DNA from: Escherichia phage vB_EcoM_Kelasse
Sequence record: MW749001.1
Strand: one strand, 5' to 3'
Length of the DNA stretch: 64,000 nucleotides
In this document: in pieces, positions 9,566-56,402 of the stretch
Position numbering within the stretch: the first letter of the stretch is position 1
How the letters are laid out: each line of letters opens with the position of its first letter
Notes under the pieces: generated by a model
Told to the model about the DNA's origin: nothing
The model's database searches: none
What the model saw: the letters and a program-made list of their open reading frames with translations, nothing else
Translations under genes and position numbers: made by a program

Positions 9566-10037
9566 TTGTTTTACCTAAAACAATAGTAGGAGCATCGTCA
9601 AATTCATGAATTTTTAGCAATTTTGGATTTAAATTATTCCATACATAATAAATAAAGTATGATAAAGCATCTTCACTCGCAATTATAAATTTATTTCCTT
9701 CATTTATTTTCCAGTCATATACTGAATCGTACGAATAAAAAGATAAAGGATTACCATTATATTGTTCTGCGCTAACATTAATGTATTCGGATTTAGTAAA
9801 TGCTTCAATTGCTCTAAACGGACTATTTGGCACAGTTTCAATAATTCCGATCTTTTTAAGTTTTATTTCAACATCTTCTGGAACTGGCATTGAAACGAAA
9901 TTTTCTACGAGATACATAGGGTTACAATAACCCTTATCAATCACTACGGCTACAGTAATTGGAACATCTTTAGCAAACGACATGCTATTACTGCTAATAT
10001 ACATTTCAAACAAAATCGCTTCCATAATTTTCCTCAA
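9540..10037 (-). CDS. hypothetical protein (165 aa)
   Basis: ORF track. Confidence 0.5.
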
Positions 10038-11129: not shown

Positions 11130-11326
11130 TTTGAATGCTCTATAATTAATTTTAAAGCTTCTTCACTGACAAAAATTTCATCAGGACCTTCTTCTACAAC
11201 CCAATCAACCACACGAAGCTGATTAGATAAGAGCTCACATACGAGCTCCTTGTCATAATTTTTAAATAGCTGGTCAATATGTTTCTTGTGGGCTTTCTTA
11301 AGCTGTCGTTTATTTAAACGAGCCAT
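11126..11326 (-). CDS. hypothetical protein (66 aa)
   Basis: ORF track; between soc and 56. Confidence 0.5.
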   Translation of the reverse strand: MARLNKRQLKKAHKKHIDQLFKNYDKELVCELLSNQLRVVDWVVEEGPDEIFVSEEALKLIIEHSK

Positions 11327-11844
11327 TAGTAACCTCGGTCTTGGCGAGCGAAGTTTTCAGCATTTTTCAGATAATAAAGTTTAAAGATTTCTTCAGCCGT
11401 AAGACCGAGACCTTGGAACATGTTCAGAACGAAATGAAGAATATCAATCATTTCGAATTTAATTTCCAACTGGTCTTGTGGAGACAAATCAGTAATCAGA
11501 GTTTCACGACGTTCACCATGTTGAGCTTTCCATGGCTTCCATACAGCAGATGCATCTTTTTCACCATTGCTCATACCACCAAGAGAAGTCAGAAGTTCGC
11601 GGAATTCATCATCAATATAATCTTTCTGATTGCGCAGCCAATCAACAACTTCACCTGCAGTAGCCAAATCATCAGGATGACGGTTATATTCAGGTTTATC
11701 TTTAGCTAAACGAACCTGCAGAGATTTCTGCATATCAAGCATAACCTGCAGCGGGTCTTTTTCATCACCGAGAATATCCCAGTATTCATTTTGAGCTTTA
11801 TCAGCGCCTTCGATCAGTTGTGAACATTCATTAAAGTAAGCCAT
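11326..11844 (-). CDS. 56: dCTP/dCDP pyrophosphatase gp56
   Basis: 172 aa; recognised as T4 gp56. Confidence 0.9.
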   Translation of the reverse strand: MAYFNECSQLIEGADKAQNEYWDILGDEKDPLQVMLDMQKSLQVRLAKDKPEYNRHPDDLATAGEVVDWLRNQKDYIDDEFRELLTSLGGMSNGEKDASAVWKPWKAQHGERRETLITDLSPQDQLEIKFEMIDILHFVLNMFQGLGLTAEEIFKLYYLKNAENFARQDRGY

Positions 11845-11916
11845 TATTTTTTCCTTTCAATTCATGGGTTAGTAGATTAATTATACAATAAATATATAAA
11901 GCAATAAGGAGGACAT

Positions 11917-12117
11917 ATGGTACAAAAATTAATGGCACTTGTTAATGCCATAAAAGGTAATAAAAAACGTATAGCTTTTACTATTTCTGCTATGGTAGGA
12001 ATTTTACTCTGGAACTTTATTCTATCACCTGTTGCAATTGCACATGGTATTAATATTCCAGTAGTTACTCTTGATACATTCGTAGATTTAGCATTTGCTT
12101 TAGTTGGGTTAATTTAA
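11917..12117 (+). CDS. small hydrophobic membrane protein (66 aa), plus strand
   Basis: Strong AAGGAGG Shine-Dalgarno 5 nt upstream; only plus-strand ORF not shadowed by a minus-strand gene. Confidence 0.5.
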   Translation: MVQKLMALVNAIKGNKKRIAFTISAMVGILLWNFILSPVAIAHGINIPVVTLDTFVDLAFALVGLI

Positions 12118-13142
12118 ATCTTAGCATATTTAGATAACCTCATTTTAGCCATCAACCCCTGGGCAATATTATTTTTCATATATTTCATAATTTGTTCAGG
12201 GGTTGCACCTTCCTTTCTAATCATATCATTGACATCTTTTGATTTCCAGGGAGATTTATCCCAAAACATAACCCTTTCTCCTGCATCAACTAATTTAGTC
12301 ATTCGTTTGATAGTGTCAGGGTGACGAGGTTCATTATCTAAAACCCACACTCGTCTATCTTTAAATGGAACAACTTCTAGGTCTAATTGACCACCCGTAA
12401 TAGCTATACCATTTTCAATAAAAAGTGAATCTATAGGTCCTTCTAGAACATATACATCACCATCTTTAACTCGTTCAACACCGTAAATTTTTGTTGCCTC
12501 AGGATAAGCTTTAATGGTGATATATTTTTGAGGAGCATCTTTCTTTAATGCACGTCCTTGAAAAGACTCAGCTTTTCCATTAGCATTATAAATTGGAATA
12601 ACAAGACGAGGCTCAGGTATTTCCTTTTTATATGTTCCCGGTGCTATGCTATTAACTAATTTAGGCCATTCAGTTGTAAACCAAAGATATTTCCATTTAT
12701 CCTTTGGAATACAACGAGCTTTTACATATTTTATAATTGCATGGTCTTCCGCCAGTTTATCTAATCGAACACATGACGGAAGAGATTTAATTATTTTCTT
12801 CTCAGGTTGTTTAGGAAGTTCTTTAGGTTTTTCTACTGGACGACTTTTACCTTTTTCTTTTCTTATTTCAAAGATATACTCACGATATAAATCAGGTTCA
12901 AACTCCTTTAAATATATTCCGATTGGTGCATGATAGTTACAGTTATAACAATGAATATTTCCTTCATTATTATCACCATAATACCATCCACGAGCTTTAT
13001 TCTGGTCGGTTTTTGAATCTCCACAAACAGGACATCTAAACCGTAATTTAAAAGTTGAACTATTATTTACTTGTGTGAATTTAGGTAAATGAGCTAATGC
13101 ACGGTATGCAAACTCATTATCAATCCAAGGTATTGATGACAT
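12114..13142 (-). CDS. 61: DNA primase gp61
   Basis: 342 aa; N-terminal zinc ribbon CPVCGDS...CYNCNYH; TOPRIM-like core. Confidence 0.9.
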   Translation of the reverse strand: MSSIPWIDNEFAYRALAHLPKFTQVNNSSTFKLRFRCPVCGDSKTDQNKARGWYYGDNNEGNIHCYNCNYHAPIGIYLKEFEPDLYREYIFEIRKEKGKSRPVEKPKELPKQPEKKIIKSLPSCVRLDKLAEDHAIIKYVKARCIPKDKWKYLWFTTEWPKLVNSIAPGTYKKEIPEPRLVIPIYNANGKAESFQGRALKKDAPQKYITIKAYPEATKIYGVERVKDGDVYVLEGPIDSLFIENGIAITGGQLDLEVVPFKDRRVWVLDNEPRHPDTIKRMTKLVDAGERVMFWDKSPWKSKDVNDMIRKEGATPEQIMKYMKNNIAQGLMAKMRLSKYAKI

Positions 13143-13144
13143 TT

Positions 13145-13309
13145 TTACTCTTCTTTTTCTTTAGATTCCTCTTTTTTCTTTTTAGGAATCTGTTCAGGGC
13201 CTTTATTTACTACAGCGCCTGACGTTGTTCCAGTAGAGATATTTTCAGGATTACCACCTGAATCTCCAGCGACCATATCTTCTTTGATAAATTCTTTATA
13301 TGTTTTCAT
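13145..13309 (-). CDS. small protein with capsid-targeting-like N-terminus (54 aa, 61.1 position)
   Basis: Hand-translated MKTYKEFIKEDMVAGDSGG...; GAGG Shine-Dalgarno; Lys/Glu-rich tail. Confidence 0.5.
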   Translation of the reverse strand: MKTYKEFIKEDMVAGDSGGNPENISTGTTSGAVVNKGPEQIPKKKKEESKEKEE

Positions 13310-13310
13310 A

Positions 13311-13937
13311 TTAACCTCTATTCATAAAAGCATTAAAAATTTGGTCATCAATAGAAACATTTACTTTAGACTGTTTTTCAGATGGTAATTCGTATCCACA
13401 TATTACAATTTTATGATCAATATTAAAATACACAGAAGCAATATGATTAATGATGTTTTCAGTAAAGTCTAAATCAACATCAATATCTTTTTGACCACAG
13501 CCCAAAGGATAAATAATGCGAGTAATTCGATTATCTTTAACAAAGATTCCACCGACATACTCTGTACTGCGTTTAAAGTCTACACGCCGACGAAATGAAA
13601 AATATTCAGGCTCTTTATGAGCTCGGCTCATAGGACACAACGAATAACTAGAATAAGAGATGTCAAATCCTACGCCTTCGATATGAGCCAAAGTGTCATG
13701 ATTAAACCAATTATAATCGTACGCCAAATCCATTAGATTATAATATGTAAAAGGCACCGGATTAACATCATTAGTCACAAGCATGTAATTAGCAACTGCT
13801 ATAATTTCATTGTTTTTAACGAATACAAACCGTGATTGATGCGAATGACCTGGACCCGCGTTTTCACGATTAATGATATAACACTGGGCACCTTTATATT
13901 TGTATGTATCTTTGCACTTGTGCATTTGATAGAGCAT
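13311..13937 (-). CDS. hypothetical protein (208 aa, 61.2 position)
   Basis: ORF track; position between 61 and sp. Confidence 0.55.
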   Translation of the reverse strand: MLYQMHKCKDTYKYKGAQCYIINRENAGPGHSHQSRFVFVKNNEIIAVANYMLVTNDVNPVPFTYYNLMDLAYDYNWFNHDTLAHIEGVGFDISYSSYSLCPMSRAHKEPEYFSFRRRVDFKRSTEYVGGIFVKDNRITRIIYPLGCGQKDIDVDLDFTENIINHIASVYFNIDHKIVICGYELPSEKQSKVNVSIDDQIFNAFMNRG

Positions 13938-16587: not shown

Positions 16588-17743
16588 TTAACTGCTCGAG
16601 GTCAGTTTCTAAATCAGCTGCTGATTTACTTTTACTTTCTGGAGATTTAAATTTTTCAACCTTTGAGTTAATCAATTCATCAACTTCAGCTTCAACAATT
16701 TCATTACTATCAATAGCACCTAACTGATAAGCACGTTTAATAGCATCTCGGAATGGTTGATGCTTAAATAAAGGACCCCAGAATGTAGTGCAGTTGGTAT
16801 CTTTTGCACGCCAAGATTTTTCTTCGCGAATCATCTCGCCAGTTTCTTCGTCAAGAAATTCACGAGCATACCAACCATTCTTAGGTTTTACAACAAATCC
16901 TAATTCTAGAGCCATATCTAACAATCCAGAATAAGGATCGATACCACCGTCAAATTTAACATCAATAAAGAATTTACTTTTTTCTTTAACGGTACGAGAT
17001 TTTTCTACATTTAGAACAAATTGATACCCCTGAAGATCAGAACCATCTTTAATCTGGCGTTTACCGATAATGAATACAGTATCAGCCGAATACATTACGC
17101 CTGTACCACCTGTCATCACGGTTTTACTAAACATTTCAATTGTTTCAATTGTATGGTTAACCGCAACACATGGAATATTTTTAATGCTAAAATAAGGAGT
17201 AACAATACGGAATAATGACTTCAGTGATTTAGCACGAGTCATATCTGCCACAGATTTTTCATTCAAGGCATCTTCCGTTTCTTTCTTAGAAGCCATATTA
17301 CCGATTGAGTCGATGAATACAATAACCTTTTCACCACGCTCAATAGCTTCAAGCTGGTTCACCATATCAATTTTCAGCTGTTCAACTGACTGAATTGGCG
17401 TATGAATTACTCGTTCCGGGTCAACTCCCATGGATCGTAAATAAGCTGGAGTAATACCAAATTCGCTATCATAGAATAGACAAACCGCGTCAGGATATTT
17501 GTTCAAATATGCCGCAACCATAGTCAAAGACATATTTGATTTAAAGTGTTTAGAAGGCCCTGCGAAAATAGTTAAACCAGACTGCATGCCGCCATCAATC
17601 GCACCAGAAATAGCAATATTAAGCATTGGGATTTTTGTACGGATTACATCCTTTTCATTAAAGAATTTAGATGTAGTCAGTTCAGCAGTCATTTTAGAAG
17701 TGGAAGCTTTAATCAAACGGGATTTTAAATCTGCAATAGACAT
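16562..17743 (-). CDS. uvsX: UvsX recombinase (RecA-like)
   Basis: 393 aa; RecA fold with Walker A-like GPSKHFKS. Confidence 0.9.
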   Translation of the reverse strand: MSIADLKSRLIKASTSKMTAELTTSKFFNEKDVIRTKIPMLNIAISGAIDGGMQSGLTIFAGPSKHFKSNMSLTMVAAYLNKYPDAVCLFYDSEFGITPAYLRSMGVDPERVIHTPIQSVEQLKIDMVNQLEAIERGEKVIVFIDSIGNMASKKETEDALNEKSVADMTRAKSLKSLFRIVTPYFSIKNIPCVAVNHTIETIEMFSKTVMTGGTGVMYSADTVFIIGKRQIKDGSDLQGYQFVLNVEKSRTVKEKSKFFIDVKFDGGIDPYSGLLDMALELGFVVKPKNGWYAREFLDEETGEMIREEKSWRAKDTNCTTFWGPLFKHQPFRDAIKRAYQLGAIDSNEIVEAEVDELINSKVEKFKSPESKSKSAADLETDLEQLSDMEEFNE

Positions 17744-17820
17744 TCATTTTTTCCATAGGCATCATTATATTTTCCTCACTGGTTAAAGATAGAGTAATTA
17801 TAACACAATAAATTTAGGCA

Positions 17821-18669
17821 TTAATCAACTGCTATTGGATGAATAGCATTAAACTTATGAAATGCTTCTGATTTTTCTTTACGCGAAACACACATGCGAA
17901 GAACCTTTAATGGCTCGTCTTCTTCACCCAACGATTTTCGTTTTTCAATATTCGATGTTTTCCAACGAGCTTGCTCTGGAAACTCTCTATTGATTTGCTC
18001 AAGCGCTCTATTATGTTTAGAATTACTGCGAATTGAACTACACCCGCCAGGAGCTTGTGCTTTTCCAGATACAACCAGATATTTGAACAGGGCTAAATGC
18101 GGATAACCTTGATTAATTAAATTGAGAAATGCATACATATCTTCGCATAAATCAATTTTTCCATACCCAATTTGTTCTGTCGTAAGTTTTCCGAGGTCAT
18201 ACCATGTATTCGTGAATCCATATGAATTTTCACGATAATTACCCCAAGATGAAGTAATTTTAAAAATAGGTAGACGAGCATGGCCATGATAATACCCGCA
18301 ATCCATGGCATCCTCAACATATTGAATCAATTCATAGAACTGTTCACGAGTCAATTGATTGACTTTATCTACGCAACGACGATCATCTCTTTTTCGCATT
18401 GAACTCATACGAATAGTAGTATCATCGTCAATCATCCAGATTCGTTGACCTGCATACATATCGGTAATTGCTTTACGAGTACCGGCAATTCCGTTTACAT
18501 CATCAGGAATAGTTATAATTTTAGCTCTAGACCCATAAGCGTCATGATAAGCTTTTTCTTCATGTTCACGCACTACAATATGGGGTTCATAATCAGTCGG
18601 AAACATATCAAGGGCAGAAACTGCCCCGACACGCTGATAACTTGGAATTACGAATTGAATCATTTCCAC
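17821..18669 (-). CDS. DxD glycosyltransferase (GT-A like), probable beta-alpha-glucosyltransferase
   Basis: 282 aa; WMIDDD motif; sits at T4 segA/beta-gt position but is not T4 beta-gt. Confidence 0.55.
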   Translation of the reverse strand: MEMIQFVIPSYQRVGAVSALDMFPTDYEPHIVVREHEEKAYHDAYGSRAKIITIPDDVNGIAGTRKAITDMYAGQRIWMIDDDTTIRMSSMRKRDDRRCVDKVNQLTREQFYELIQYVEDAMDCGYYHGHARLPIFKITSSWGNYRENSYGFTNTWYDLGKLTTEQIGYGKIDLCEDMYAFLNLINQGYPHLALFKYLVVSGKAQAPGGCSSIRSNSKHNRALEQINREFPEQARWKTSNIEKRKSLGEEDEPLKVLRMCVSRKEKSEAFHKFNAIHPIAVD

Positions 18670-56040: not shown

Positions 56041-56402
56041 TACAAACTCTCAGTAAAGGTACGAGCGATAACGTCGCGCTGCTGTTCCGGAGTCAGAGAG
56101 TTAAAGCGAACTGCATAACCGGATACACGGATGGTCAGCTGCGGATATTTTTCCGGATGCTTAACTGCATCTTCCAGAGTTTCACGACGCAGAACGTTAA
56201 CGTTCAGGTGCTGACCACCTTCAATTTTAACTGTAGGCTGTGGTTCAATTTCAATTTCACGGGCATGCAAACCGTAGAAAATTTCTGGGTCTACAAAAGA
56301 GTCCTCTTTAAAGGTTTTAGAGACAATAATTCGTGCTTGAATACCATCTTCAAAATAAATAGTACCTTTATGTGTGCCTTCAAGAATTTGATATGCTTTC
56401 AT
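56040..56402 (-). CDS. autonomous glycyl radical cofactor GrcA/YfiD-like protein
   Basis: C-terminal [29 protein letters not shown] glycyl-radical domain; that half is visibly GC-richer than its surroundings. Confidence 0.85.

Follow-up and report, generated by a model that had tools for sequence, protein, structure and literature searches.

The 64,000-nt stretch of phage DNA analysed here (referred to as the window) is a Tequatrovirus (T4-like) segment with 96-98% identity to positions 4.3-68.2 kb of Escherichia phage JLBYU22. Gene 56 and gene 61 are separated by a gap of 269 bp, in which the following features are found, together with the two genes themselves:

11326..11844, minus strand: gene 56 (dCTPase/dUTPase), the left flank, a 172-aa ORF
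11880..11902, minus strand: putative MotA-type middle promoter of gene 56, with GCTT at 11899-11902, a 13-nt spacer and TATAAT at 11880-11885
11887..11894, plus strand: putative late-promoter box AATAAATA, which is TATAAATA with A at position -13, 30 nt before the ATG of the dam.1-family gene
11906..11912, plus strand: Shine-Dalgarno sequence AAGGAGG, 4 nt before the ATG
11917..12117, plus strand: coding sequence of the dam.1 family (RB69ORF029w, RB32ORF030w, phrog_2024), 66 aa, with an ATG start
11922..11951, minus strand: terminator-like hairpin ATGGCATTAACAAGTGCCAT followed by a T-run, 3' of gene 61 and inside dam.1 codons 2-12
12107..12148, plus strand: weak terminator-like hairpin at and after the dam.1 stop codon, within gene 61 at its 3' end
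12114..13142, minus strand: gene 61 (DNA primase), convergent with dam.1, the two stop codons overlapping in TTAA at 12114-12117

The original prediction of a 66-aa plus-strand ORF with an AAGGAGG Shine-Dalgarno sequence, in a gap of about 270 bp between genes 56 and 61, is thus borne out at 11917-12117, and the same is true of its view that this is the sole convincing plus-strand gene, as dam.1 is the only annotated plus-strand CDS in the JLBYU22 counterpart of the window (4.3-68.2 kb). The sign of the GC skew flips locally across the ORF. Gene 56 is labelled gp56/dCTP pyrophosphatase in the records of RB51, SA20RB and JLBYU22, and the site at 11880..11902, whose homologue is entered in the SA20RB record as 'T4 middle promoter GCTT(N13-15)TATAAT', is presumably active as the gene 56 middle promoter. 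The stretch between gene 56 and dam.1, which contains this promoter on its minus strand, measures 72 bp, and a plus-strand transcript initiated from the AATAAATA box is predicted to start near 11900. The 4-nt convergent overlap of the stop codons is also present in T4, in Mosigvirus and in distant T4-like contigs. As a separate observation, the minus-strand middle promoter of gene 56 and the plus-strand late box of dam.1 are interleaved within about 25 bp (11880-11902), the late box falling between the two elements of the middle promoter, which is read from the opposite strand.

The reading frame is a genuine gene that is under purifying selection and retains its synteny. Among 13 distinct Tequatrovirus sequences the pooled dN/dS is 0.16, and the variable sites are distributed over the three codon positions as 12/2/14, with second positions seldom varying, while five sequences from Mosigvirus and Gaprivervirus give a dN/dS of 0.36; the amino-acid substitutions are conservative, chiefly V/I and A/T. 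The protein was detected by tblastn in 696 phage records, and inspection of records one by one placed it in at least four genera of the Tevenvirinae, namely Tequatrovirus, Mosigvirus, Gaprivervirus and Kanagawavirus. In every case it converges with the primase gene from the strand opposite to the early genes, with an exception in spacing in one distant homologue locus (L015), where a 124-aa gene stands between the dam.1 homologue and the primase gene. Residues 2-66 match positions 1-65 of the 65-position profile of phrog_2024 (E=1.4e-31), a family of unknown function that is likewise matched by 16/16 diverse dam.1 relatives. Even at about 20-30% identity, the N-terminus of family members is still basic, and their hydrophobic helix, with W-N-(F/Y)...P, is still followed by the motif G..LP..(L/I)(D/E); a GGAG-containing Shine-Dalgarno sequence precedes every T4-like homologue examined.

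It could be argued that the ORF is untranslated and that its conservation stems from overlapping signals of the neighboring genes, i.e., the terminator and the 3' end of gene 61 and the promoter of gene 56, as a minus-strand terminator-like hairpin does lie within codons 2-12 and the gene 56 middle promoter does overlap the dam.1 5' UTR. This reading is very improbable in the face of a dN/dS of 0.16-0.36 with its codon-position pattern, of a strong Shine-Dalgarno sequence in all T4-like lineages, and of a frame, a length (57-70 aa) and motifs that persist to about 20-30% identity, where the DNA itself is unalignable. The hairpins, moreover, are not conserved beyond Tequatrovirus. The one at 11922..11951 has 8 base pairs and the tail TAATTTTTGT (-8.9 kcal/mol, z -2.2) and is identical in T4, and SA20RB has a rho-independent terminator annotated at the same place, yet it is not kept in Mosigvirus or Kanagawavirus. 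The hairpin at 12107..12148, with the tail TCATTTTAG and -13 kcal/mol for 12095-12160 (z -2.2), also coincides with a terminator annotated in SA20RB, and no counterpart was detected in T4 in the same scan. A conserved bidirectional terminator was considered as a component of the dam.1 unit and rejected, since both hairpins are lineage-specific and hence no defining part of the unit. No Rfam family was matched in 11300-12700.

The gene is a typical representative of a family that has been catalogued before without being characterised, and is nothing new in kind. The protein called dam.1 in T6 (MH550421), RB69ORF029w, RB32ORF030w and, in AR1, ar1_033 is present in identical form on 259 contigs, and identity within the family amounts to 92-100% across Tequatrovirus and to about 50-55% with Mosigvirus and Gaprivervirus. 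Its members share with the window gene the strand, the position adjacent to the primase gene, the stop-codon overlap, the Shine-Dalgarno sequence and the late box, and differ from it in nothing of substance; the T4 record NC_000866.4 omits its copy. The family is small, and homologues recovered by word-indexed and exhaustive profile searches are nearly all in T4-like phage contexts. When 1.84 billion representative proteins were searched exhaustively with a profile, 15 clusters only were returned, of 44-72 aa, in which full-length members have 57-72 aa and the shorter ones are truncated fragments, and an IMG/VR scan for the locus yielded 5 loci only, all of them close relatives. No paper on the gene was found in the literature searched under the family names and under T4 ORF and ribosome-profiling topics. 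On one metagenomic contig (L022:267-673), two family members stand in tandem, one Gaprivervirus-like and one Kanagawavirus-like, and thus at least two paralogous dam.1 subtypes are able to coexist. The sole non-T4-like context seen is that of a remote member (L019:3001-3213; E=1e-4, with a phrog_2024 match), which lies beside bacterial genes at the end of a prophage-like tail/lysozyme block and has no TATAAATA box.

In the T4 reference record dam is located between genes 56 and 61, as the original prediction had stated, and dam is indeed missing from this interval here, with no Dam homologue found in the 64-kb window by tblastn with T4 Dam as the query (best E=0.78). The ORF does not, however, sit in the dam position, as the original prediction had it, since T4 and T2 carry dam and the same ORF side by side. 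In NC_000866.4, dam (16846-17625) is followed by a 309-bp featureless gap before gene 61, and the T4 copy of dam.1 lies between the two, at 17738-17938 on the plus strand; its product is identical to that of the window gene in 64/66 residues, and AAGGAGG and GATAAATA are found upstream. This copy has no feature in NC_000866.4 and likewise none in the T4 record KJ477684, whereas dam.1 is annotated in T6, RB51, AR1 and many further records. In T2 the order is dam, an extra 181-aa ORF and dam.1, and the T6 record MH550421 is without dam in this interval and names the ORF 'dam.1'. The comparison of the interval with T4, T2 and T6 therefore upholds the absence of dam from the window, but not the notion that the ORF stands in for it. 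The extra ORF of T2 (AP018813, 15995-16540; L031:1696-2241) is labelled 'head outer capsid protein' and T2 dam.1 'putative head morphogenesis protein', the latter looking like an evidence-free transfer of a label by similarity.

The layout in which the ORF directly follows gene 56 and precedes gene 61, without dam, is shared by Mosigvirus, where no gene intervenes between gene 56, the ORF and the primase gene, by T6 and by distant T4-like contigs, while Kanagawavirus and several distant T4-like contigs are without dam and have other small ORFs in the slot. As T4 and T2 have both genes and the dam-less layout occurs in several genera, dam is the insertion and dam.1 the constant neighbor of the primase gene. 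In a BLAST comparison of T4 with the window, identity is 97% rightwards from 11 nt upstream of the dam.1 ATG and about 78% at the nucleotide level in gene 56 and its proximal upstream region (77.6% in gene 56), and about 900 bp of T4, comprising dam and its flanks, correspond to about 20 bp in the window. The late box and the Shine-Dalgarno sequence are homologous in T4 and the window, which places the junction directly upstream of the box. The cassette carrying dam is optional, measures about 0.9 kb and is inserted between the promoter of gene 56 and the late box of dam.1. The counts of records are as expected for presence or absence of dam at one locus: a 601-bp query spanning the dam-less interval is matched end to end by 322 phage records and T4-type dam DNA (at least 90% identity) is found in 182, which together approximate the about 502 Tequatrovirus records with dam.1 at 90% protein identity or more. 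Roughly one third of Tequatrovirus records are thus with dam, T4 and T2 among them, and two thirds without, including T6 and this phage.

That a membrane gene has replaced dam at the locus, be it as a cassette or as a functional substitute, would fit an interval that has the ORF and no dam, and is almost certainly wrong. In addition to the adjacency of the two genes in T4 and T2, the ORF, the late box and the Shine-Dalgarno sequence are homologous in phages with and without dam, several genera show the dam-less layout, and the protein has no methyltransferase features (no Pfam match). T4 Dam and the dam.1 product have only their neighborhood in T4 in common, Dam being an unrelated GATC N6-adenine methyltransferase of 259 aa that is encoded on the minus strand, is present in about 182 records and is absent from the window and from JLBYU22. 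The genome of JLBYU22 (166,300 bp), the closest complete one, contains no Dam homologue by tblastn (best E=0.93 with T4 Dam and 0.25 with E. coli Dam). A dam gene elsewhere in the genome, which would have counted against the original prediction, was thus not found there, and this phage, extrapolating from its closest relative to the DNA outside the window, most probably has no gene for Dam. In this lineage, GATC methylation of phage origin should be lacking, which may alter their sensitivity to methylation-dependent or methylation-sensitive host defences.

The late-promoter near-match that had been noted upstream of the ORF is the AATAAATA box at 11887-11894, and several observations bear on its use. 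A NATAAATA box is found 23-41 nt upstream of the dam.1 ATG in 9/9 T4-like lineages, among which the intergenic DNA around the box is otherwise unalignable, and in Kanagawavirus Q7622 it takes the canonical form TATAAATA. Of 50 listed T4 late promoters, 32 have a perfect TATAAATA and 9 have A at position -13, which is the commonest natural variant and the same form as the window box (Geiduschek and Kassavetis, PMC2988020), and position -13 is poorly conserved among T4-like phages (Nolan et al., PMC1524935). T4's own dam.1 box, GATAAATA, is a rarer departure from the consensus. Within the window, the motif WATAAATA is three-fold depleted, with 9 sites against 26 +/- 5 expected from shuffled sequences, and 7/9 of these precede the Shine-Dalgarno sequence and ATG of a real gene, namely soc, 49, e (two boxes), rI, a 70-aa ORF and dam.1. 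The distance from box to ATG is 21-39 nt for soc, 49, e, the 70-aa ORF and dam.1 and 52 nt for rI, the latter box not being flagged by the scan for Shine-Dalgarno sequence and ATG itself. The T4-type late genes soc, 49 and e thus have the same geometry as dam.1, but here they are minus-strand genes, and their products are known, whereas dam.1 stands alone on the plus strand over about 64 kb and its late expression is predicted. The plus strand yielded no sigma-70-like promoter. Taken together, the conserved box, the depletion of the motif and the late-gene geometry make late transcription the best inference for dam.1, which would accordingly be transcribed late.

Plus-strand copies of WATAAATA other than the dam.1 box were also noted in the window. 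Those at 567-574 and 9647-9654, the only two sites with no gene behind them, are not followed by an ORF with a Shine-Dalgarno sequence and ATG, and are possibly chance occurrences or promoters of antisense late RNA. The copy at 56354-56361 belongs, with the minus-strand box before rI, to one perfect palindrome (56347-56361), and is therefore probably a by-product of the rI late promoter.

The arrangement of the locus also raises the question of whether its main role is at the RNA level, with late antisense RNA shutting down the primase mRNA and the transcripts of gene 56 and oriA, and the peptide being secondary. [quoted passage not shown] Nonetheless, this reading has only a small chance of being right, as it is the dam.1 protein that is under purifying selection, and as the interleaving of the promoters is not general, the late box of T4 being kept apart from the promoter of gene 56 by the dam cassette. 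In addition, the L015 locus has a strong canonical terminator right at the stop codon of the dam.1 homologue, which would block antisense read-through there. Overlap of dam.1 with early read-through transcripts in antisense orientation follows from the gene layout only. Late antisense transcription into gene 61 and, in dam-less phages, occlusion of the promoter at gene 56 are possible as secondary effects.

The product of dam.1 is hydrophobic, as had been stated in the original prediction, with a GRAVY of +1.25, a main hydrophobic segment at about residues 19-42 and a C-terminus (...DLAFALVGLI) that is hydrophobic as well. AlphaFold2, run on an alignment of 13 sequences, models helices at residues 2-12, 16-42 and 52-63 with a mean pLDDT of 79.5, and a small protein of the inner membrane is predicted. 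Five K/R residues precede the transmembrane segment and two Asp residues follow it, the cluster of charges being N-terminal; by the positive-inside rule alone, the topology is likely to be N-in/C-out with a periplasmic tail. The C-terminal hydrophobic stretch could form a second, short membrane segment, and the last 16 residues, which are amphipathic to hydrophobic, may reside within the inner membrane's outer leaflet or on its surface. Searches for function by homology returned nothing significant in Pfam, NCBIfam, PADLOC or PDB sequences, either for the single protein or for 16 diverse members, and the only BFVD structures that Foldseek retrieved with the AlphaFold2 model were those of family members. 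The marks of a type I toxin of the Hok/Ldr kind, a family match together with an antisense RNA gene of its own, were not found, with Ldr_toxin at E=0.1 in 1/16 members and no Rfam family in 11300-12700.

Among the envelope proteins of T4, Imm, the antiholin RI and Sp resemble the dam.1 product by type only, being small, membrane or periplasmic proteins with a role at the envelope. No sequence or profile similarity of Imm or RI to it was found, hhalign giving no similarity to T4-type RI or Imm. Imm and Sp are early or middle proteins encoded on the minus strand, in contrast to the late-type box of dam.1.

Whether the product could be a holin, an antiholin or another lysis-timing protein deserves consideration, since it would be a small, late-type membrane protein whose hydrophobic helix at about residues 19-42 provides at least one transmembrane domain. 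In UniProt, a single family entry bears the name 'Holin', but this is a single label among hundreds of 'hypothetical protein' entries and no experimental support for it was found. Likewise, 2/16 members have a weak match to GTA_holin_3TM (E=0.08), but none of the matches to holin families is significant, and the hhalign probability against RI is 0.3%. The hydrophobic C-terminus is not the charged, hydrophilic tail that is typical of holins. As to context, the remote member L019 lies in a tail/lysozyme block, which is suggestive but of limited weight, whereas in T4-like phages dam.1 adjoins the primase gene and is never beside t, e, rI or spanin genes; in JLBYU22 it is far from the annotated holin, endolysin (with the product name 'baseplate hub + tail lysozyme'), rI regulator and spanins. 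A review of lysis inhibition contained nothing that maps to dam.1. With no charged tail, no holin match and no lysis cassette, dam.1 is not filed as a holin here, and a role of this kind is unlikely. The lysis system of T4 is considered to be complete in the absence of dam.1.

The locus is therefore probably to be read as follows: 11887-12117 is a real, conserved gene unit for a late-type membrane protein next to the primase gene, and dam is an unrelated, optional cassette that is absent here. With its late-type promoter box, strong ribosome-binding site and 66-codon CDS, the unit would be self-contained, and it would most likely be transcribed by the gp55/gp33/gp45 late RNA polymerase, giving a product that is abundant late in infection. 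The short, amphipathic N-terminus rich in Lys/Arg would face the cytoplasm, the one transmembrane helix (about residues 19-42) would carry the near-invariant W-N-(F/Y)...P motif, and the tail of about 24 residues, with the conserved G..LP..(L/I)(D/E) and the hydrophobic end, would be on the periplasmic side. The protein probably acts at the cell envelope, in lysis timing, membrane integrity or exclusion; for its late transcription, its topology and its envelope function alike, we infer from sequence features what the gene would do. In a more far-reaching version, which is tentative and has a modest chance of being correct, dam.1 would be an overlooked late gene of the T-even phages with an abundant inner-membrane product that has a late envelope role (lysis timing or inhibition, superinfection exclusion or membrane integrity), and in dam-less phages its late promoter could additionally help to switch off the gene 56/oriA promoter.

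The discovery value of the locus is little, as hundreds of T4-like genomes already have dam.1 entered as a hypothetical protein, and whether or not a T-even phage carries dam is a matter of simple accessory-gene polymorphism. Mildly notable is only the omission of dam.1 from the T4 reference annotation, because of which users of the T4 RefSeq record miss a conserved and probably highly expressed late membrane gene at 17738-17938 (plus strand), and screens built on that annotation have probably missed it as well. The interval between genes 56 and 61 can be described as a plasticity slot, which is empty here, is occupied by dam in T4 and by dam and an ORF in T2, and holds other small ORFs in distant relatives; as this slot is variable, gene order alone is no sign of functional replacement.

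Variation is also seen in the neighborhood of the slot. Gene 56 is only about 78% identical to that of T4, with flanks of 92-97% identity, and where T4 has the homing endonuclease gene segF, the window has ORFs of 57 and 66 aa that are soc.1/soc.2-like, as in T6 and T2. The segment 10956-11844 represents a mosaic boundary, which would fit gene conversion of the kind associated with SegF. On the other side of the locus, JLBYU22 and RB51 have an extra 118-aa, 61.2-like ORF (RB32ORF033c) between 61.1 and 61.2, which the window lacks at 13307-13937 (compared with L011:17742-18732), representing another small indel in the same early-gene cluster.
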